64,000 bases of DNA, from assembly GCF_056746865.1 (NCBI RefSeq), contig NZ_CM163382.1; one strand, 5' to 3'. Under the pieces are notes generated by a model. That model did no database searches and was not told where the DNA came from. It saw only the letters and a list, made by a program, of their open reading frames with translations. The position numbers and the translations under genes are program-made. This document shows, one piece after another, positions 18,003-44,465 of this stretch (position 1 is the stretch's first letter; every line of letters begins with the position of its first letter).

Positions 18003-18078
18003 GGCCCCTTAGCTCAGTGGTTAGAGCAGGCGACTCATAATCGCTTGGTCGTTGGTTCAAACCCAACAGGGGCCACCA
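18003..18078 (+). tRNA. ileX: tRNA-Ile (anticodon CAU, ileX-like)
   Basis: 76 nt: 7-bp acceptor stem GGCCCCT/AGGGGCC, D-arm, anticodon loop CTCATAA, T-arm GTTGG-TTCAAAC-CCAAC, 3' CCA. Ile2 rather than Met assignment is from memory of ileX and from position after mug. Confidence 0.85.
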
Positions 18079-21508: not shown

Positions 21509-21994
21509 TCAGTCAATGATGCGCATAATGGCGTTGCATTCCGGATGCTGCAGGGCGTAATCCCGCAGCCGGTAATAATGGACCGTCATGGCATAACACT
21601 CCGTACGACAGGCATGATGGCTGTACGTCATCAGACAGGCAGCAATGCCGGCGGCTTCCGGGCTCATTTCAGCGCGGTTACCGTTCATGGCACTGAACAG
21701 TACCCATGTTTCGTCATCATCGTCATCCGGTTCGGGTGCCATAAATGCCCCGCCGTTGTTCAGGGTGTACAGATTCCAGATACCACCACAGTAGTCTTCG
21801 CACAGACGATCCATCCAGCCGAAGACACGGGGCTCCAGGGTCACCCACTGTGGAATGAGGCCAAAATGCTGCGGCCAGAAGCTGATGCGCTGTTCATCAG
21901 GGACGAGGGTGGCAACCAGTTGAGGCGGGTTATTCTCTGATACAGCGGTTACGGAAACAGAAGGTGTGGTGGAATTATGCAAAACGGTTGTCAT
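21509..21994 (-). CDS. Antirestriction protein (ArdB/KlcA-like, YfjX-type)
   Basis: 161 aa with acidic stretch (EPDDDDDE); position and size typical of antirestriction proteins in CP4-type islands; assignment from memory. Confidence 0.6.
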   Translation of the reverse strand: MTTVLHNSTTPSVSVTAVSENNPPQLVATLVPDEQRISFWPQHFGLIPQWVTLEPRVFGWMDRLCEDYCGGIWNLYTLNNGGAFMAPEPDDDDDETWVLFSAMNGNRAEMSPEAAGIAACLMTYSHHACRTECYAMTVHYYRLRDYALQHPECNAIMRIID

Positions 21995-27584: not shown

Positions 27585-29141
27585 ATGACAAGTATTCAAC
27601 AACGAGCAGAACTGCACCGCCAGATATGGCAAATTGCCAATGATGTCAGAGGTTCTGTTGACGGATGGGATTTTAAGCAATACGTTCTGGGCGCACTTTT
27701 CTACCGTTTTATCAGCGAAAATTTTTCCAGTTATATTGAAGCCGGTGATGACAGTATCTGTTATGCGAAACTGGATGACAGCGTAATTACTGATGACATT
27801 AAAGACGATGCCATCAAAACTAAAGGCTACTTCATCTACCCCAGTCAGCTTTTCTGCAACGTAGCGGCGAAAGCAAATACTAATGACAGGCTGAATGCAG
27901 ATTTAAACAGCATCTTCGTTGCTATCGAAAGTTCTGCTTACGGTTATCCTTCAGAAGCTGACATCAAAGGTTTGTTTGCTGATTTCGATACCACCAGTAA
28001 CCGCCTGGGTAACACCGTTAAGGATAAAAATGCCCGCCTGGCTGCGGTTCTGAAAGGGGTTGAAGGGTTAAAACTTGGTGACTTCAACGAACATCAGATT
28101 GACCTGTTCGGTGATGCCTATGAGTTCCTGATTTCTAACTATGCGGCAAATGCCGGTAAGTCAGGCGGTGAGTTCTTTACACCGCAGCACGTCTCCAGGC
28201 TGATTGCACAACTGGCTATGCACGGGCAGACCAGCGTTAACAAAATCTACGACCCGGCAGCGGGTTCCGGCTCACTGTTGTTGCAGGCGAAAAAACAGTT
28301 TGATAACCACATCATCGAAGAAGGCTTTTTCGGTCAGGAAATCAACCATACGACCTATAACCTGGCGCGTATGAACATGTTTTTGCACAACATCAACTAC
28401 GACAAGTTTGATATCAAGCTGGGTAATACACTGACTGAGCCACACTTCAGAGATGAAAAACCGTTTGATGCCATCGTTTCTAACCCGCCGTATTCGGTGA
28501 AATGGATTGGCAGCGATGACCCGACGCTGATTAACGATGAACGTTTTGCCCCGGCTGGCGTTCTGGCCCCCAAATCAAAAGCTGACTTCGCCTTTGTACT
28601 ACATGCGCTGAACTATCTTTCTGCCAAAGGTCGCGCCGCGATTGTCTGCTTCCCGGGTATTTTTTACCGTGGCGGCGCGGAGCAGAAAATCCGTCAGTAT
28701 CTGGTCGATAATAACTATGTCGAAACCGTGATTTCACTGGCACCGAACCTGTTCTTTGGCACCACCATTGCCGTCAATATTCTGGTGCTGTCTAAACATA
28801 AAACGGATACCAAAGTTCAGTTTATTGACGCCAGCGAACTGTTCAAAAAAGAGACTAATAACAACATCCTGACCGATGCTCATATCGAACAGATTATGCA
28901 GGTATTTGCCGGCAAGGAAGATGTTGCTCATCTGGCGAAATCTGTCACGTTTGAGACTGTTGTCGCGAATGACTATAACCTGTCGGTGAGCAGCTATGTG
29001 GAAGCGAAAGATAACCGCGAAGTGGTGGACATTGCTCAGCTCAACGCCGAGCTGAAATCTACTGTCGCCAGGATTGACCAGCTTCGCAGGGATATTGATG
29101 CCATCGTCGCTGAAATTGAAGGCGAGGAGCAGGAGGCATGA
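27585..29141 (+). CDS. hsdM: Type I restriction-modification system, N6-adenine DNA methyltransferase subunit
   Basis: 518 aa; AdoMet motif [10 protein letters not shown] and catalytic NPPY ([11 protein letters not shown]); N-terminal HsdM domain. Confidence 0.92.
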
Positions 29142-30343
29142 GTAGCGTGAACTTCTTGGAAAAGCTGTTGGATGGCGTTGAGGTCGAGTGGAAGACACTT
29201 GGGCAAACTTGCAAAATTGAAACAGGAAAGCTTAATGCGAATGCGGCTGTTGATGATGGAGAGTATATGTTCTTCACGACAGCCAAAGAGACAAGCAAAA
29301 TTGATAAATTCCGCTGGGATACAGAGGCATTGCTGATTGCAGGCAATGCGAATGTTGGTGAGGTGAAGCATTACATCGGCAAGTTTGAGGCTTATCAGCG
29401 CACCTATGTTCTGACAAATTTCGACGAAAATGTAAGTGTTAGATTTTTGTATTTTGTGCTTAGCCATAGCCTGAAGAAATATCTCGAGGAAAGAACAAAT
29501 AGCGCGGCAATGACATATATCGTGCTATCAACCTTAGAGAATTTCCCTATCCCCATCCCCTGCCCAGGCAACCCCCAAAAATCCCTTGCCATCCAGTCTG
29601 AAATCGTTCGGATTCTGGATAAATTTACTGCACTTACCGCTGAGCTTACCGCTGAGCTTAACATGCGTAAAAAACAGTACAACTACTATCGCGACCAGTT
29701 GTTGAGTTTTAAAGAGGGTGAGGTTGAGTGGAAGACTTTGGGGGAAATTGGAGATTTTACATATGGATATGCAGCCAAAGCCATGGATTCAGGAGATGCC
29801 CGTTTCGTGAGAATTACTGACATAAATAAAGACGGGAAGCTATCGAAAGAAAACCCAATGTACGTTGAATTAAATGAGGAAAATGAGAAATATACCTTAG
29901 ACAAAAATGATTTACTCATGGCAAGAACTGGGGCAACCTTTGGTAAAACAATGATTTTTGAAGAAGATTATCCAGCAGTATACGCTGGTTTTTTAATAAA
30001 GTTGAACCTAAATAAAACGATTATTAATGCCAAATATTACTGGCACTTTGCACAAAGTGATTTTTTTTGGGAACAGGCTAATAAATTAGTATCTGGTGGT
30101 GGGCAACCACAGTTTAATGCTAATGCACTGAAACAAGTCAGAGTACCTATTCCATACCCATCTCACCCTCAAAAATCTTTAGACGAACAGGGGCGTATTG
30201 TGGATATTCTGGATAAGTTTGATGCAATCGCAGCTTCCATCACCGAAGGTCTCCCGCGTGAAATCGAGTTACGTCAAAAACAATACGAATACTATCGTGA
30301 TTTACTGCTCAGTTTCCCAAAACCTGAAACTGTCAGTAAATAA
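29138..30343 (+). CDS. hsdS: Type I R-M specificity subunit (type IC architecture)
   Basis: 401 aa; ATG overlaps hsdM stop; two variable recognition domains separated by a conserved central region with TAELTAEL and conserved distal region ([24 protein letters not shown]). Confidence 0.9.
29633..29656 (+). repeat. 12-bp tandem repeat cttaccgctgag x2 in hsdS (TAEL x2)
   Basis: Two perfect tandem copies plus a 4-nt partial third (ctta), read directly; encodes LTAELTAEL in the HsdS central spacer. Confidence 0.9.
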
Positions 30344-30464
30344 TTGACCATTGCTACCGACCGGGCCTCCTTAACATCCGGTCAGTATATAGACTATTTT
30401 TTACGCGCCGGAAGTCACTCTTAACGCCCTTCCGGCTCTTGCCAGGCGGCACAAAGGATGCGCT

Positions 30465-33400
30465 ATGACTCATCAAACACACACCATTGCTGAATCCAAT
30501 AACTTTATCGTCCTTGATAAGTACATCAAAGCTGAGCAAACAAGCGACAGCTACCAGAGCGAATCGGACCTGGAACGTGAACTGATTCAGGACCTGCGGA
30601 ATCAGGGTTATGAATTTATTTCCGTAAAATCACAGTCGGCAATGCTGTCTAATGTTCGGGAACAGCTTCAGAGCCTCAATGGTGTGATGTTTAATGACAG
30701 CGAGTGGCGGCGCTTCACGGAGCAGTATCTGGACAACCCCAGCGATGGTATTCTGGATAAAACCCGTAAAATCCATATCGACTATATCTGCGACTTTATT
30801 TTTGACGACGGGCGACTTGAGAACATCTATTTGATAGATAAAAAGAATCTCATGCGCAATAAGGTGCAGATTATCCAGCAGTTTGAACAGACGGGTTCTC
30901 ATGCTAACCGTTATGACGTCACGATCCTGGTTAATGGTTTACCGCTGGTGCAAATCGAACTAAAAAAACGCGGGGTGGCGATTCGTGAGGCTTTCAACCA
31001 GATACATCGTTACAGTAAAGAGAGTTTTAACAGCGAAAATTCCCTGTTTAAGTATCTGCAACTGTTTGTCATTTCTAACGGCACCGATACCCGTTATTTT
31101 GCCAACACGACAAAGCGCGATAAAAACAGTTTTGACTTCACCATGAATTGGGCGAAATCAGACAACACGCTGATTAAAGACCTCAAAGACTTTACCGCTA
31201 CCTTTTTCCAGAAACATACTCTGCTGAATGTTCTGGTGAACTACAGCGTTTTTGACAGTAGTCAGACGCTACTGGTGATGCGACCGTACCAGATTGCCGC
31301 CACCGAGCGCATTCTGTGGAAAATTAAGAGTTCCTTTACAGCGAAGAACTGGTCAAAACCGGAAAGCGGTGGGTATATCTGGCACACTACCGGTTCTGGT
31401 AAAACCCTCACCAGCTTTAAAGCCGCGCGTCTGGCAACAGAGCTGGACTTTATTGATAAAGTCTTCTTTGTGGTCGACAGGAAAGACCTCGATTACCAGA
31501 CCATGAAGGAATATCAGCGTTTTTCGCCAGACAGCGTCAACGGCTCGGAAAATACCGCAGGCCTTAAACGAAATCTGGATAAGGACGATAACAAAATTAT
31601 CGTCACTACTATTCAGAAACTCAATAACCTGATGAAAGCAGAAAGCGACCTGCCTGTATATAATCAGCAAGTGGTGTTTATATTTGATGAATGCCACCGC
31701 AGCCAGTTTGGAGAAGCGCAGAAAAACCTGAAGAAGAAATTCAAACGCTATTATCAGTTTGGTTTTACCGGCACCCCTATTTTCCCGGAAAACGCCTTAG
31801 GCTCAGAAACAACCGCCAGCGTATTTGGCCGTGAATTGCATTCGTATGTGATTACCGATGCGATTCGTGACGAAAAAGTGCTCAAATTCAAGGTGGACTA
31901 CAACGATGTGCGGCCACAGTTTAAGTCTTTAGAGACAGAAACTGACGAGAAAAAACTGAGTGCGGCTGAAAATCAGCAGGCGTTTCTTCACCCCATGCGT
32001 ATTCAGGAAATCACGCAATATATCCTGAATAATTTCCGCCAGAAAACCCACCGTACTTTCCCTGGTTCCAAAGGTTTTAATGCCATGCTGGCAGTAAGCA
32101 GCGTGGATGCTGCAAAAGCCTATTATGCGACGTTTAAACGGTTACAAGAGGAAGCCGCTAATAAATCTGTAACTTATAAACCGCTGCGTGTTGCGACAAT
32201 CTTCTCCTTTGCCGCTAATGAAGAACAAAATGCCATTGGTGAAATTTCCGATGAAACTTTTGATACCAGCGCAATGGACAGCAGTGCTAAAGAGTTTCTT
32301 GACGCTGCAATTCGTGAGTATAACAGCTATTTTAAAACTAACTTCAGCACCGACGGTAACGGTTTTCAGAACTACTATCGTGATTTAGCCCAACGGGTTA
32401 AAAATCAGGATATCGATCTGTTAATTGTCGTGGGAATGTTTTTAACCGGCTTCGATGCTCCAACATTAAACACGCTATTCGTCGATAAAAACTTGCGTTT
32501 TCACGGCCTGATGCAGGCATTCTCCCGCACCAACCGCATTTATGACGCGACTAAAACCTTCGGTAATATTGTCACGTTCCGGGATCTGGAACGCTCAACC
32601 ATTGATGCCATAACGCTGTTTGGTGATAAAAATACCAAAAATGTGGTTTTAGAAAAGAGTTATGCAGAGTATATGGAAGGCTTTACTGATGCTGCCACTG
32701 GTGAAGCTAAACGCGGCTTCATGACAGTAGTTTCAGAACTGGAACAACGGTTCCCTGACCCTACCAGTATTGAAAGTGAAAAAGAGAAGAAAGACTTCGT
32801 TAAACTGTTTGGCGAATACCTGCGTGCCGAGAATATCCTGCAAAACTATGATGAATTTGCCACGCTAAAAGCCCTGCAACAAATCGATCTTAGCGATCCT
32901 GTTGCGGTAGAAAAATTCAAAGCAGAACATTATGTGGATGATGAAAAGTTCGCTGAATTGCAAACAATTCGTCTCCCTGCTGATCGCAAGATTCAGGATT
33001 ATCGTTCTGCCTATAACGATATTCGCGACTGGCAGCGCCGTGAGAAAGAAGCTGAGAAAAAAGAGAAATCAACCACTGACTGGGATGACGTAGTTTTTGA
33101 GGTCGATTTGCTGAAGTCTCAGGAAATAAACCTGGATTATATCCTTGGACTGATTTTCGAACACAACAGACAAAATAAAGGCAAGGGCGAAATGATCGAA
33201 GAGGTCAAACGCTTAATTCGTTCAAGCCTGGGGAACCGTGCTAAAGAGGGCCTGGTGGTCGATTTTATTCAGCAAACGAACCTGGATGATTTACCGGACA
33301 AAGCCAGCATCATTGACGCATTCTTTACGTTTGCTCAACGCGAACAGCAACGTGAAGCAGAAGCCTTGATCAAAGAAGAAAATCTCAATGAAGAGGCGGC

Positions 33401-33581
33401 GAAACGCTATATTCGCACATCTTTAAAACGCGAATACGCCACCGAAAATGGCACGGAATTAAACGAGACACTGCCCAGACTCAGTCCTTTAAATCCGCAA
33501 TATAAAACGAAAAAACAGACTGTTTTTCAAAAAATTAGCGCATTTATTGAAAAATTTAAGGGGGTGGGTGGAAAGATTTAG
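30465..33581 (+). CDS. hsdR: Type I R-M restriction endonuclease/helicase subunit
   Basis: 1038 aa; helicase motif I (TGSGKT) and DEAD-like box ([12 protein letters not shown]); length and sequence recall EcoR124I HsdR. Confidence 0.92.
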
Positions 33582-33731
33582 GGAAGGTGCGAATAAGCAG
33601 GTCATTTCTTCCCAAGCTGACTCGCTGATTAAAATTTCGCGGATCTGGGCCGATTTTTTTCCCGCAAACACATCGAATCGGCCTGTTTAGGCTATTTTTT
33701 CCACCATTTCTGGCGTTATTTCCGGTTTTTA

Positions 33732-36015
<2,284 letters not shown>

Positions 36016-36184
36016 TCAGGAACTTGTTCGCACCTTCCCTAAAAAAAGCAGATGATTTTCATTATTATCGCAGGATAATTGTGCGCATATTTTCCATGCG
36101 GATAAGAATACTTATTCATGGAAATAATAATTTCCAGGTCATCAAGTGAAATCTGTTAACGCAAAGAGTGTTCCACCCTGCCCC

Positions 36185-36715
36185 TCACACCATCTCAAGT
36201 TTTACCGCGTCATAACCACACTGAACCAAACATTCACCGCAACCATTACATATTGCAGCATCGATTACAGGCATTCCGCTTTCGTTGATTGAGCATGCCT
36301 GAAGTGGGCATAGATCGACACACTGTTTGCAACTGCGCACCGGATTAACACAATTTGCTTTAAAAACGGGACGCAATCCGGTGTCGAAACGAGCCTGCGG
36401 ACGTAATGCCTCAGTGGAACATGCAGCTATACATAAGCCGCAGCCGTCACAACTGGCAAATTCAATCACCAATTGCGGATAGCCATCTTCATGCCGGTTG
36501 AGAATGCCCATGGGACAGGCATTAATACACAAATCACACTGCGTGCACTGCACACGAAACTGCGCATCAGGTAACGCGCCGGGAGGTAAGGAGTGCACAG
36601 GTAATATCGGTGTTGTTACCGGGCGTGCCGCGCTGACAAAGGCCCGAAATAGCCCACGTCGGCTAACATACCGATGAGACATTAACTCCTGATAATAATT
36701 TTCTGACTTACTCAT
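36185..36715 (-). CDS. Ferredoxin-type protein with multiple 4Fe-4S motifs (NapF-like)
   Basis: Several CxxCxxCxxxCP motifs; start taken at MSKSENYYQ... whose ATG overlaps the upstream chaperone stop (ATGA). Confidence 0.65.
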   Translation of the reverse strand: MSKSENYYQELMSHRYVSRRGLFRAFVSAARPVTTPILPVHSLPPGALPDAQFRVQCTQCDLCINACPMGILNRHEDGYPQLVIEFASCDGCGLCIAACSTEALRPQARFDTGLRPVFKANCVNPVRSCKQCVDLCPLQACSINESGMPVIDAAICNGCGECLVQCGYDAVKLEMV

Positions 36716-37308
36716 CCAAGAAAGAGCCGTTTGGTTGGAGGATTTAGTGCCTGTTGCTGCTGATAATCCTGCAGAAACAGTGTCGCAATCTGCGCCAACT
36801 TCGCGTAAAACGCACTGACAGGGTTGCGCTGTAATAACTCCAGATAACGATATCCCCACGGCAGCAAATGCGTTTCCAGCAATTGATTCGCTGCGCGTTC
36901 TTTCCCCTCTGCCAGCAAGGCGCTACAGGCAAGCAGCATCAGGCCAAACTGATCTTCCGGTTCATTTATACAGGAATCAAACGTCATTCCCTGATCACGA
37001 AGGAACTTCCGGTACTCGGCAGTGCTGTCCCCCATCAACAGATTATCTTTTTCGAGATATACCGAACCCCAGGGTGGTGCTGGCATTTCACCCTGTCCTT
37101 CAAAAAGAACAGAAAATTGCCAGAGATGCTGCTCCTCATCCGGGATTGACCAGTCAGAGCATAATTCAGCCACCTGGCGGGGATCGCGCCAGGGGTATAT
37201 CTCATCCAATGTCGGCAGACAGTCAAACAGTGCCCGAACTTCAGGACGCGTGGGAGAATAGTAAAACAGGGCACCAAGAATACGCACCAGTACGGCTGGG
37301 GAAGGCAT
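36712..37308 (-). CDS. TorD/DmsD-family redox enzyme maturation chaperone
   Basis: About 199 aa from MPSPAVLVRILGALFYY...; position after the membrane anchor as in dms/ynf operons. Confidence 0.6.
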   Translation of the reverse strand: MPSPAVLVRILGALFYYSPTRPEVRALFDCLPTLDEIYPWRDPRQVAELCSDWSIPDEEQHLWQFSVLFEGQGEMPAPPWGSVYLEKDNLLMGDSTAEYRKFLRDQGMTFDSCINEPEDQFGLMLLACSALLAEGKERAANQLLETHLLPWGYRYLELLQRNPVSAFYAKLAQIATLFLQDYQQQQALNPPTKRLFLG

Positions 37309-37362: not shown

Positions 37363-38139
37363 TTACATAGGGATGGTCCAGAGGTTGTAGAAACCGATCC
37401 GACCAACCAGTTCAGCAGCAATAACCACCAGTGCAGTCATCGCCAGCACAGCTTGCCCACTTTTCATGCGTGCATAGAGCAGTGCCCCAATAACACCCAG
37501 CGCCAACAGAATGGCCTGAGCGGTAAACCAGGTGGACTGCGCAGCGGTAATAACGCCATCAGCACTCATTAGCGTGGAAATATAACCCGGACGCAAACAG
37601 AAACTCGCCAGAATCGCCAGTACACTTACCAGCAGCCCCAGACGACGAACGCCAAACAACGCCGCCAACATGCCGCCACCGATAAGTGCAGTTAGCACCA
37701 TCATCATGGTGGTGTAAGAGGTACTCCAGGTCGCTACCGTTGCCAACTGGTAAATACGCGGGATGGCAAAGATAAACACGACTCCAATCGCAGCGGCCAG
37801 CCATACCAGTACTTTACAAAGCATTGCACCACCGCGATTTAACAGCAAACCGAGAGATCCCAGTCCTCCGGCTGCGGCAAAACATGCCGAAAGCACGATT
37901 TCGTTACTCATAGGAGAACTGCCGACACGGAATAGCATATTCAGCGCTCGCAGCGGCTGCCCGACATGAATGGTGCCAAGCACAACACCCACACCAAACA
38001 AGCACATCACCGAAAAGAGACCAATCGCCATACGACGTGGCTCAATTAATCCCATGGCACCGCCAATCAGCAGCAGAATAAACGCCCCCACTGCGCTCTG
38101 GGTAAATACGGTGAAAAAGACCAGTGGTAACTCATGCAT
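37363..38139 (-). CDS. DmsC-like membrane anchor subunit
   Basis: 258 aa, eight predicted hydrophobic segments; overlaps the B-subunit stop by 8 nt. Confidence 0.75.
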   Translation of the reverse strand: MHELPLVFFTVFTQSAVGAFILLLIGGAMGLIEPRRMAIGLFSVMCLFGVGVVLGTIHVGQPLRALNMLFRVGSSPMSNEIVLSACFAAAGGLGSLGLLLNRGGAMLCKVLVWLAAAIGVVFIFAIPRIYQLATVATWSTSYTTMMMVLTALIGGGMLAALFGVRRLGLLVSVLAILASFCLRPGYISTLMSADGVITAAQSTWFTAQAILLALGVIGALLYARMKSGQAVLAMTALVVIAAELVGRIGFYNLWTIPM

Positions 38140-38758
38140 GGCGCACCTCCCGAATGTTCATGATCGCCCCTTCTTTGTCGCCCGTAGGTCGCGCCAGCGG
38201 ATGCGGTTTAATTATCAGGTTAGGATGCGTAAACGAAGCGGCAGGTAACGGTGCGATTTCATTTTCACTGCCATATTTCGCCCGCAATTCGTCGATAGGA
38301 CCAAAATCCAAAGCTCGCTGTGGACAGGACTCAACACAAATAGGCGGGAGATTTTTCTCCAGTCGGTCAAGGCAACCATCACACTTACGCATCACTTTAG
38401 CTTGTGTATCAAACTGCGGTGCACCATAAGGGCAGCGCATTTCGCAGTAACGACAGCCCACACAAACACTGTCATCCACCAGCACCAGGCCATCTTCTTC
38501 GCGTTTGTGCATCGCGCCGGTTGGGCAACCTGCCACACAGGTCGGTTCATCGCAGTGATTGCAGGCAATCGACAAATAGTAAGTGAAGGTATTGTTGTGC
38601 CAGCTTTCACCTTCTTTCACCCAGCTACCGCCACCATATTCATACACGCGGCGCAGCTTCGGTCCGACATCCAAATCTTTATTATCCTTGCAGCTTACCT
38701 GGCAGGTTTTGCAGCCAGAGCAACGCGAGGAGTCAACGTAAAAACCATACTGTTTCAT
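38132..38758 (-). CDS. DmsB-like 4Fe-4S electron-transfer subunit
   Basis: 208 aa with four Cys-cluster motifs (CSGCKTCQVSC, CNHCDEPTCVAGCP, CVGCRYCEMRCP, CDGC...C). Confidence 0.85.
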   Translation of the reverse strand: MKQYGFYVDSSRCSGCKTCQVSCKDNKDLDVGPKLRRVYEYGGGSWVKEGESWHNNTFTYYLSIACNHCDEPTCVAGCPTGAMHKREEDGLVLVDDSVCVGCRYCEMRCPYGAPQFDTQAKVMRKCDGCLDRLEKNLPPICVESCPQRALDFGPIDELRAKYGSENEIAPLPAASFTHPNLIIKPHPLARPTGDKEGAIMNIREVRHA

Positions 38759-38771
38759 TGCGGATCACTCC

Positions 38772-41207
38772 CTAAGCGCGTTTGATTTCAACCAGGTTGG
38801 TATGTTGCGGGTTCCCTTTCGCCAGCGGCGACGGCAGGTGGCTGGTCAATGTGTTAATACATCCACCCACGTCCACACCGTTGCTGTCCAGTCGGGTCCA
38901 CGCGCCTTGCGGCATTGCCACCACGCCCGGCAGGATGCGCTGTGTCACCTTGCAGGGGATCTCCACCACACCGCGATCGTTGAATACATGGACCATATCG
39001 CCTGATTTCAACTGACGCACGCTGGCGTCTATCGGGTTGATCCAGACTTCATCCGGTACCGCTTCATGCAGCATCAGCACACTGGCATATGTTGAGTGCG
39101 TGTGACCTTTGGTGTGAAAACCGCTCATCTGTAGCGGATACTTTGCTGTCAGACTCTTGTTCAGATGGGACTCTGTCACTATACAAAATTCAGGAACAGC
39201 CGGAATGCGATCTCCTTCCGGTAGTGTCCAGGCTTTAGCCAGTTCCGCCAGAGTGTGCGAGTAAATCTCAATCTTCCCGGAAGGTGTCGTCAGTGGACTG
39301 GCAACCGGATCATGGCGGAAATCAGCAAGGATAATACTGTCCTCATCACGAGTACCTTGCTGATCGATAACCCCCATATTCATTGCAACTTCCCATTCAG
39401 GCAGATATGATCGCTTCTCTTTAACTTGTCCGTAATGCTTCGCCATCCACTCTGCCTGAGTACGCCCCTCAGTAAAACGCTCTCTTACCCCAAGATGCCC
39501 CGCAATATCTGCACAGATATCATAGGTACTGCGTACTTCCCACATCGGTGTGATCGTTTTTTGCATTGCAATCATGTAATGGTGAGAACCGGCTGCATAG
39601 GAACTGTCCACCAGATCCTCGGCTTCTAAGTAGCTAGTTTCTGGAAGAAGGATATCGGCAAAGCGGGCACTGGCAGTCATATGATTATCAATAACCACGA
39701 TAGTTTCGCACAGGCTGTCATCTTCAAGTATTTTGCGTGTACGATTGATATTTCCATGTTGATTCAGAAGTGCATTCCCGGCCTGGTTGAAGAACAGTTT
39801 AATACCGGTTTTCAGTTTATCCGCGCCTTTAACCCCCATAGTGGTGGCTGTCATTTTTTCCGGACTTTGAATCGCATCTGTCCACAGATAGCAGGGGATT
39901 GACACCTTAACGGGATTTTCACCAATCGGCAGAGCAGGAACACCATAAGGTGTTCCGTATGTCCAGTTCCCATTGTTGGTTCCTGGCAATCCAAAATGAC
40001 CCGTCAGGGCAGGAAGTATCTGAACCGCTCTGGAAGTCTGTTCACCATTTGCATGACGCTGTGGCCCCCATCCCTGGGCAATGAAACAGGCCCGAGCTTC
40101 GGCCATTTCACGTGCCAACTGGCGAATACGAATAGCCGGGATGCCACAGATATCTGCCGCCCATTCAGGTGTTTTTTCGACGCCGTCATCACCGTTACCC
40201 AGAACATAGTCTTTATAACTGGCATTTGGTTTCGCCGTTTCCGGAAGGGTGCTACGATCATAACCGACACAATAAGTATTGACTCGTTCTTCGTCGATCA
40301 GATTTTCTTTTATCAACGTGTGTGCAATAGCTGCTACCAGTGCAGCATCGGTTGTAGGGCGAATTGGTAACCATTCAGCATGTTCTGTAACAACAGAGTC
40401 TGTATAGCGCGGATCGATGATAATCACCCGGGCGCCTGATATTTCCAGCGCACGGCGCAGTTCTTCAACTTGCCCACCACCGGACATCCGAGTCTCAGAT
40501 AAATTCAGACCAAAAAAAACCACAAGATCAGAATGCGCAATCTGGCTAAAATGACTGGCAAACTGTACTCCTGTAGCACCATACGTGTAAGATGTGGCGG
40601 TAAAGTTTTGAGCGTTTGAGTAATTATTGTAATACTGCAGAAAACCGCCATTCAGGTTCAATAACCTTTTCCATGCGGGTGTTCCTTGGTTATGATAATA
40701 CGCGCCAGATTGATAATTAAAATAGATTGCTTCATTTCCATATTTTTCAGAAACGCGCTTTAATTCAGCGGCAATAAAGGCTGTGGCCTCATCCCATGAA
40801 ATACGTTTAAATTTCCCTTCTCCGCGTTTACCAACACGTTTCATCGGATATTTAATCCGGTCAGGGCTATAAACACGCCAGCGGCTGGAACGACCACGTA
40901 GGCAAGGTCGAATCTGATGTTCACCAAAAACAGAGTCGTCCTTCGCGTCCTCGGCTTCAATACGAACAATGCGTCCGTCTTTTACGATAACTTTTAATGG
41001 ACAACGACTTCCGCAATTCACCAGGCAAGCACTATGCCTGACGGTTTCAGCATTTTCGTTGGTTTTACCGGTATCCGATGTTTCGGCCCTGACGGTTGTG
41101 GAAAAAGGCAAAGTGATGGCGTTGCTTAGTGCAACGGCAGCTCCCAATTTTGCAGTTGTAGTCACCGCATCACGTCGGGAGATTGTTGTATTTAACAACT
41201 CTTTCAT
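38772..41207 (-). CDS. DMSO reductase-family molybdopterin oxidoreductase catalytic subunit (DmsA/YnfE-like)
   Basis: 811 aa; twin-arginine signal (TISRRDAVTT), N-terminal Cys cluster (HSACLVNCGSRCP), molybdopterin domains. Confidence 0.85.
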   Translation of the reverse strand: MKELLNTTISRRDAVTTTAKLGAAVALSNAITLPFSTTVRAETSDTGKTNENAETVRHSACLVNCGSRCPLKVIVKDGRIVRIEAEDAKDDSVFGEHQIRPCLRGRSSRWRVYSPDRIKYPMKRVGKRGEGKFKRISWDEATAFIAAELKRVSEKYGNEAIYFNYQSGAYYHNQGTPAWKRLLNLNGGFLQYYNNYSNAQNFTATSYTYGATGVQFASHFSQIAHSDLVVFFGLNLSETRMSGGGQVEELRRALEISGARVIIIDPRYTDSVVTEHAEWLPIRPTTDAALVAAIAHTLIKENLIDEERVNTYCVGYDRSTLPETAKPNASYKDYVLGNGDDGVEKTPEWAADICGIPAIRIRQLAREMAEARACFIAQGWGPQRHANGEQTSRAVQILPALTGHFGLPGTNNGNWTYGTPYGVPALPIGENPVKVSIPCYLWTDAIQSPEKMTATTMGVKGADKLKTGIKLFFNQAGNALLNQHGNINRTRKILEDDSLCETIVVIDNHMTASARFADILLPETSYLEAEDLVDSSYAAGSHHYMIAMQKTITPMWEVRSTYDICADIAGHLGVRERFTEGRTQAEWMAKHYGQVKEKRSYLPEWEVAMNMGVIDQQGTRDEDSIILADFRHDPVASPLTTPSGKIEIYSHTLAELAKAWTLPEGDRIPAVPEFCIVTESHLNKSLTAKYPLQMSGFHTKGHTHSTYASVLMLHEAVPDEVWINPIDASVRQLKSGDMVHVFNDRGVVEIPCKVTQRILPGVVAMPQGAWTRLDSNGVDVGGCINTLTSHLPSPLAKGNPQHTNLVEIKRA

Positions 41208-41301: not shown

Positions 41302-41413
41302 GTGAGATTTGGTGCTTAGCACAAATATAAATATTTGTGATCATTATCAAAATGTAAATGATAACGCATCTTTATTATCATTTGAGATTAAATATCACGC
41401 AGCGTTAATCTAA

Positions 41414-43870
<2,457 letters not shown>

Positions 43871-44465
43871 CAAGAGAACGCAACAGCGCACTTGCTTTGC
43901 CACAGTTGAATTTTGTGCCGTAACGATGTGCAAGCATGTAAGCATAAGGAGTCAAGGTATAGCGTGTTACTTAGTTACTCGGATTAACAATCCCAACGTA
44001 CAGAGCGGCGGATTTAGAGAGTCAGCGCAGTCCCTGCTCCGGCAGTCAGTGGCAGGCGGCGTACTGAAGCAAACCATTATCGATACCGGCATCGGCGATA
44101 CCATCGGCATGCTGATGTCACACGGCAATATTTCTCCCTACATCATGGCGTGGTTGATAACCGTGCTGATCCGTCTGGCAACGGGTCAGGGCGTGGTCTC
44201 AGCCATGACGGCGGCGGGGATTATTAGCGCAGCAATCCTCGACCCGGCAACCGGTCAACTGGTGGGCGTCGACCCGGCGTTGCTGGTGCTGGCAACAGCG
44301 GCTGGCTCCAACACGCTGACCCATATCAACGATGCTTCGTTCTGGCTGTTCAAAGGCTACTTTGATCTGTCGGTGAAGGATACGCTGAAAACCTGGGGTC
44401 TGCTGGAGCTGGTAAACTCCGTGGTTGGCCTGATAATCGTGTTGATCATCAGCATGATTGCATAA
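43871..44465 (+). pseudogene. GntP-family permease, C-terminal fragment truncated by IS5
   Basis: The 303-aa track ORF starts inside IS5; only the distal ~198 codons look like a gluconate-type permease C-terminus. Confidence 0.6.

Follow-up and report, generated by a model that had tools for sequence, protein, structure and literature searches.

The TAEL repeat of a type IC hsdS gene: a probable determinant of target spacer length with rare changes in copy number

In the restriction family to which EcoR124I belongs, the TAEL repeat explains how a new target specificity can appear through one small in-frame change in length, and such a change of specificity alters both the phages and plasmids accepted by a strain and the sites that it methylates. 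The stretch of DNA analysed here (the window, 64,000 nucleotides) contains an hsdS gene with two tandem copies of a 12-bp unit, which the original prediction regarded as a spacer-length switch. The locus therefore raises a double question, whether this repeat sets the spacing of the target in an enzyme with its own recognition domains, and whether its copy number changes quickly enough for the word switch to be appropriate.

The repeat lies in the second gene of a type I restriction-modification operon, of which the genes and the parts of hsdS are the following:

27585 to 29141, + strand: hsdM, type IC methyltransferase subunit, 518 aa (TIGR00497, 647 bits)
29138 to 30343, + strand: hsdS, specificity subunit, 401 aa, intact
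29138 to 29203, + strand: N-terminal conserved region of HsdS, residues 1-22, identical in the alignment with EcoR124 HsdS
29204 to 29548, + strand: TRD1, approximately residues 23-137, unrelated to TRD1 of EcoR124I (DNA identity 0.37)
29549 to 29752, + strand: central conserved region, residues 138-205, first coiled-coil helix, joining both TRDs
29633 to 29660, + strand: repeat, CTTACCGCTGAG twice and then CTTA, coding for (L)TAEL-TAEL, detected with Tandem Repeats Finder, submitted to a chance test and identical in DNA in the EcoR124I-identical hsdS
29753 to 30169, + strand: TRD2, approximately residues 206-344, unrelated to TRD2 of EcoR124I (DNA identity 0.33-0.39)
30170 to 30343, + strand: C-terminal conserved region, second coiled-coil helix, from the alignment with PDB 7BST
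30465 to 33581, + strand: hsdR, translocase/endonuclease subunit, 1038 aa (TIGR00348, 765.9 bits)

Type IC systems have the gene order hsdM-hsdS-hsdR, with hsdM and hsdS coupled and hsdR separate. The window operon has the same order, the stop of hsdM and the start of hsdS overlapping by 4 nt (ATGA) and hsdR standing apart after a gap of 121 nt, where a promoter scan gave one weak consensus match (30371-30400) and no enrichment over shuffled sequences. All three subunits matched EcoR124 structures: HsdM the M protein of 7BST (chain D, 1132.5 bits, residues 1-515), HsdS the specificity protein of the same entry (chain A, E=7e-71, residues 1-400) and HsdR the EcoR124I HsdR of 2W00 (2272.8 bits over 1-1038). 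Pfam PF01420 is precomputed for the protein cluster of the window HsdS, and the identical gene of E. coli PEC148 is labelled “restriction endonuclease subunit S” by RefSeq (WP_059239974.1). Within the central conserved region, only two positions differ from EcoR124 HsdS across a 66-residue stretch of the 7BST alignment. The two variable domains could hardly be aligned with that structure. The helix segment LDKF..YYRD counts 27 aa in the central helix versus 31 aa in its C-terminal partner. Chain A of 7BST is itself titled “EcoR124II specificity protein”, yet it has two TAEL units, the number that the literature assigns to EcoR124I, and the title of this entry is a naming trap when repeat number is inferred from it.

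For a closer comparison, the plasmid-borne operon of pMB8236_1 (L012), whose hsdS is 99.8% identical to that of EcoR124I, served as reference. The window HsdM is identical to its counterpart at 502 of 518 positions (96.9%) and HsdR at 1019 of 1038 (98.2%), where similarity of these two subunits over about 70% is the criterion for membership in one type I family (PMC10030836). Classically, these families are defined by complementation between the subunits of their members. The overall identity of HsdS is 44%, and the DNA identity profile of the operon drops, to 0.33-0.39, only across the two TRDs. HsdS has the expected three conserved regions (N-terminal, central and C-terminal) flanking two variable TRDs. 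A tandem repeat of four amino acids (TAEL, LEAT, SEAL or TSEL) within the central conserved region is characteristic of type IC (PMC3874165, PMC10030836), and TAELTAEL is found here at residues 167-174 (nt 29636-29659). The repeat DNA and its flanks are identical between the window and the reference hsdS; moreover, positions 29628-29647 and 29648-29667 of the window are exact matches to the published primers for removal of one TAEL from EcoR124II (PMC10644984). The membership of the repeat in the EcoR124 family, proposed from the letters of the DNA alone, is thus borne out by the structural matches of the S, M and R subunits and by the identities of HsdM and HsdR. Since M and R are near-identical to those of the reference and the conserved regions of HsdS and the repeat match EcoR124I while the TRDs differ, the window system is, judged from its sequence, a genuine type IC enzyme of the EcoR124 family with another TRD pair and another specificity.

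The likeness to EcoR124I and EcoR124II extends to the gene order, to essentially identical conserved regions of HsdS and to the 12-bp unit CTTACCGCTGAG with its flanks, and the window hsdS shares with EcoR124I the number of two copies. It differs from EcoR124I by both TRDs, for which reason its half-sites are not expected to be GAA and RTCG, and by its location, the EcoR124I gene being carried by plasmid R124 whereas the window gene is chromosomal, in a tRNA-linked island. Two other type IC enzymes, EcoDXXI and EcoprrI, have three TAEL repeats and N7 spacers (PMC3874165), unlike the two-repeat window allele; three repeats are also found in sister alleles sharing the window TRD2 (L002-L004) or its TRD1 (L017). 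NgoAV of Neisseria gonorrhoeae, likewise of type IC, has tetra-amino-acid repeats in its central helix with LEAT as the unit, but it also varies by a homopolymer frameshift truncating HsdS, and neither such a tract nor such a truncation is present in the window hsdS. The PDB search gave no TRD closer to those of the window than the EcoR124 structure. An assignment of the TRD2 half-site through a weak NCBIfam match to an EcoKI-type S subunit was dropped, the identity with EcoKI HsdS in BLASTP being 21%.

The repeat itself was described by Tandem Repeats Finder as a tract of period 12 at 29633-29660, with 2.3 copies, 100% matches and the consensus CTTACCGCTGAG. This agrees with the two perfect copies (29633-29656) and the 4-nt partial third copy (CTTA, 29657-29660) announced by the original prediction. 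The hsdS frame runs through each unit as CTT ACC GCT GAG (L-T-A-E). In a custom scan of the 64 kb for perfect tandem runs with a period of 4 to 30 and a minimum of 16 self-matching bases, it was the sole perfect short tandem run of the window, while 30 shuffled sequences gave none and the analytic expectation was about 1.6e-4 per window; a chance origin was rejected on these grounds. It is thus extremely improbable that the duplication is an accident, or a purely structural element with no bearing on specificity in the window allele. This explanation is opposed not only by the low expectation but also by the identity of the DNA with the experimentally characterised repeat of EcoR124I/II, and by hybrid enzymes in which spacing shifted exactly according to repeat number (PMC3874165).

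Directly 5' of the repeat, at 29624-29632, the codons TTT ACT GCA (F-T-A) resemble a degenerate three-quarter unit, with 6 of 9 bases matching CTT ACC GCT. Sister alleles have S-E-L or T-E-L at this position, their tract being longer by GAGCTT. Judging from this degenerate upstream unit, the repeat tract of hsdS may formerly have been longer. An antisense ORF crossing the repeat (29404-29682, 92 aa, TTG start) was dismissed, its sole support being the open frame.

The function of the unit is documented by work on the EcoR124 enzymes. EcoR124I has two copies and recognises GAA N6 RTCG, EcoR124II has three and recognises GAA N7 RTCG, and the change between them was attributed to unequal crossing-over at the repeat (PMC3874165). 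One TAEL corresponds to slightly more than one helical turn, displacing the DNA-binding domains by 0.34 nm and rotating them by 36 degrees, and in the EcoDXXI hybrids the spacing changed exactly as predicted by repeat number (PMC3874165). Deletion of one TAEL from EcoR124II converted it into EcoR124I and altered phage restriction as predicted from the phage sites (PMC10644984). [quoted passage not shown] The equivalence of two or three 12-bp repeats with N6 or N7 in EcoR124I and EcoR124II is therefore supported, mainly by the literature (PMC3874165, PMC10644984), in which a shift of 1 bp per repeat is established for EcoR124I/II, the EcoDXXI hybrids and NgoAV only. The terms “N6 versus N7” are nevertheless specific to EcoR124; the quantity governed by repeat number is how far apart the two methylated adenines lie, an interval listed as 7 for EcoR124I and as 8 for enzymes with three repeats (PMC3874165, Table 1).

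Transposed to the window allele, these data point to a mechanism in which each TAEL would lengthen, by about one helical turn, one strand of the antiparallel coiled coil holding the TRDs. An added unit would place the TRDs about 0.34 nm further apart and rotate them by about 36 degrees, which amounts to a target spacer longer by one base pair. By analogy with EcoR124I, the two-copy enzyme of the window is predicted to methylate adenines 7 nt apart; with three copies the spacer would be longer by one base, and with one copy it would probably be shorter by one. The prediction for this allele is limited to the 7-nt adenine interval and extends neither to half-sites nor to a literal “N6”. Copy number would shift through misalignment of 12-bp units, by unequal crossing-over, by replication slippage or by conversion from another type IC hsdS, and rare changes of this kind would produce heritable new specificities over evolutionary time rather than a rapid and reversible phase switch. 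On the whole of the evidence, we give a probability of about 85% to the reading in which the repeat determines spacer length in a type IC HsdS of the EcoR124 family, with copy changes that are rare, heritable and evolutionary.

The distribution of repeat numbers was surveyed among the type IC hsdS central regions of E. coli, which amounted to 1369 records in 1278 of 5426 complete genomes, chromosomes and plasmids included. Counts were taken from an even sample of 60 of the 1369 records down the ranking, being read from alignment spans, with three checked by sequence. About 25 of the 60 records had two repeats and about 30 had three; a single record had one repeat (L007, whose gene is intact and lies on a complete plasmid), another had four (L006, a gene truncated by ISEc45), and three were uninformative. 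Two and three repeats are thus roughly equally common among E. coli type IC hsdS genes, one and four being rare. When the homologue search was repeated with an engineered three-repeat query, it returned essentially the same 120 proteins, and the three-repeat alleles came from span differences in the DNA searches.

Two alleles have features of their own. The hsdS of L006 (NZ_CM132938.1, 4375808-4377801), with TAEL four times, is annotated as lacking its C-terminus and has an ISEc45 transposase gene directly downstream; an intact gene with four repeats was not found in the sample of 60 records. L008 (NZ_CP142930.1, 1251121-1253096) is a three-repeat allele in which a different 12-bp unit, CTTACAGCAGAG, encodes the TAEL peptide. 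Two codons are also missing directly after its central helix (..SFKEVEWK..), a second, small difference in linker length which might also affect spacing.

Within single alleles, the sister alleles of the window gene provide natural length variants. Alleles combining the window TRD2 with another TRD1 are found with one, two and three repeats (P0119, P0092 and L002), the proteins being 100% identical outside the repeat. At the DNA level, the one-repeat L011 and the two-repeat L009 and L010 are identical over 3.27 kb save 12 nt, while the three-repeat L002 is identical to L009, save the repeat units, over hsdS and 1 kb of hsdR, the 35 SNPs between them all lying in hsdM. Another pair, P0135 with one repeat and P0096 with two (132 contigs), is identical outside the repeat. 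The exact TRD pair of the window also has a one-repeat form (P0136), found in one 4.5-kb pig-gut metagenome contig (L013, run ERR1135413), whose hsdS DNA equals that of the two-repeat L014 (protein P0122, 48 contigs) save 12 nt. Both TRDs of L013 are 100% identical in DNA to those of the window, the differences being confined to the conserved regions. Finally, the window TRD1 is associated with a different TRD2 and three TAEL units on plasmid pEC16-2 (L017). Variation in units of 12 bp between hsdS genes otherwise identical in DNA is thus observed in two series, L011/L009/L002 (one, two and three) and L013/L014 (one and two). From the sister series, L013 and L017, it follows that both TRDs are compatible with other repeat numbers and that single-unit changes do occur. 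The expectation that repeat-number variants could arise is accordingly upheld, by the sister series sharing TRD2 and by the one-repeat form of the exact TRD pair. An assembly artefact behind the one-repeat forms is unlikely, the 28-nt tract being shorter than the assembly k-mer (k127), and is also opposed by their recurrence in independent backgrounds, including the complete plasmid of L007.

Such changes are uncommon in this genetic background. In all 50 complete-genome records which carry the window TRD pair over the full length of the gene, the repeat number is two; one of these records also has a 1-nt deletion elsewhere, and the allele occurs on chromosomes and on several plasmids (94-116 kb). 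The exact HsdS protein of the window is present in 779 public contigs, while exact versions with one, three or four repeats are absent from about 15 billion proteins. Neither the complete-genome records nor the protein lookups contain a three-repeat form of the window TRD1+TRD2 pair. In total, 2 of the 26 engineered exact repeat variants that were looked up exist, and for five abundant sister alleles the figure is one of 10 length variants.

These frequencies bear directly on whether the tract could be a contingency element for fast and reversible phase variation, such that clonal populations would continually mix cells with one, two and three repeats and different specificities. The repeat is in frame, so each change in length leaves hsdS intact; natural alleles with one to four copies exist, and Atack et al. 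consider a possible change of spacing by tracts adjoining TAEL (PMC7383803). The tract also resembles the repeats of phasevarion hsdS and hsdM genes in lying within a type I restriction-modification gene and in the predicted effect of its length on methylation. The phasevarion tracts, however, are long, have high mutation rates and usually act on/off by frameshift, whereas the window tract is in frame and has just 2.3 copies of its 12-bp unit. Neither a long tract nor frequent clonal change of length, the marks of a phase-variable contingency locus, was found here in consensus assemblies. The constancy of the TRD pair at two copies in 50 of 50 records, on chromosomes and several plasmids alike, the single existing variant out of 10 among the sister alleles and the lack of any exact one-, three- or four-repeat counterpart beside 779 contigs (consensus assemblies missing minority alleles) all weigh against this explanation, which we consider very unlikely. 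Of the switch originally proposed, the change in length is therefore real, as the sister alleles and L013 testify, but its rate was overstated.

Under the preferred reading of a rarely changing spacer-length determinant, the route by which copy number changes can be considered separately. Differences between alleles could come mainly from homologous recombination or gene conversion with other type IC hsdS genes of different count. E. coli genomes have as many as six places with a type IC hsdS, distributed over chromosomes and plasmids; alleles with the same TRDs differ only in the three conserved regions, in the manner of a recombination mosaic, and the confinement of the 35 SNPs between L002 and L009 to hsdM indicates a nearby crossover. 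Against a main role of conversion, the window has a single hsdS copy, and in-place gain or loss is the simplest explanation for L011, which differs from L009 and L010 by only 12 nt over 3.27 kb, a comparison to which the hsdS genes of L013 and L014 can be added. Moreover, the literature credits unequal crossing-over at the repeat (PMC3874165), as the original prediction had done. We therefore regard conversion as an unlikely main source, keeping in mind that slippage in situ is inseparable from gene conversion, given that the alleles have near-identical conserved flanks and that the nearby hsdM is a mosaic; sequence alone likewise cannot separate unequal crossing-over from either. Conversion and in-place change have the same outcome for specificity. 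Shuffling by a nearby recombinase between several hsdS copies or half-genes with inverted repeats was not apparent in the window, where the 20-mers of the central region occur once; the genes around hsdS are a GTPase-family gene, hsdM and hsdR, followed by IS elements.

Alleles with the same TRDs as the window gene (P0122-P0134, and L013 compared with window positions 29138-30343) differ only at residues 3-6, 142-147, 162, 184-200 and 391-401. This pattern suggests that TRDs and central regions are exchanged among the copies on chromosomes and plasmids by recombination that occurs frequently in the conserved segments.

A broader proposal is that the natural alleles with one to four copies form a working dial of four positions, from about N5 to N8, in which the intact one-repeat alleles (L013 and L007) would be active and have a further specificity, instead of being crippled by-products. 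If so, at least two new specificities would lie a single 12-bp step away from the window hsdS. We hold this idea to be doubtful.

The feature is already known, its unit being base for base that of EcoR124I/II, characterised in the 1980s, and nothing in it is new in principle. What is added here is the near parity of two and three repeats across E. coli, the sister series with one, two and three repeats, the one-repeat form from pig gut and the 50 of 50 two-repeat records. The survey indicates that repeat changes are rare within any one allele, despite two- and three-repeat forms being about equally common in the family as a whole. The practical value is modest and consists of a predicted 7-nt adenine interval for a common but uncharacterised specificity subunit of E. 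coli, present in the 779 contigs mentioned above.

The surroundings of the operon are those of a genomic island. The hsdMSR locus is 100% identical to that of the E. coli PEC148 chromosome, where RefSeq annotates the M, S and R subunits, and the PEC148 island starts at a tRNA gene and carries CbtA/YeeU-type toxin-antitoxin genes, an antirestriction gene, an Ag43 adhesin and a GTPase-family gene. In the window, the left edge of similarity to this island is a tRNA gene with anticodon CAT (18003-18078), called tRNA-Met by ARAGORN while the matching PEC148 gene is tRNA-Ile according to RefSeq. As the sequence left of 18000 has no match to the PEC148 neighbourhood, the island may be inserted here beside another copy of the tRNA gene. 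In the same island, some 5.6 kb away from the restriction-modification operon, a gene on the minus strand (about 21509-21994) corresponds to the one called “antirestriction protein” in PEC148; it had no NCBIfam match at E<1e-5. The joint travel of an anti-restriction gene and a restriction system is possibly worth a look.

On the other side of the operon, a direct repeat of 2,464 bp, with copies 99.6% identical at 33576-36039 and 41408-43871, begins within hsdR, 6 nt short of its end. In each copy, an IS5-family transposase ORF is followed by an IS3-family transposase ORF, the former being shorter than the intact 326-aa ISKpn26 transposase at the PEC148 position. Between the copies lies an operon of DMSO/selenate-reductase type, with the A subunit at 38772-41207, the B subunit at 38132-38758 and a NapF-like ferredoxin at 36185-36859. 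Because the otherwise collinear PEC148 has just one IS5-like element at this place, which is intact, and lacks the reductase operon, the operon and its flanking direct repeats look like an insertion in the style of a composite transposon.
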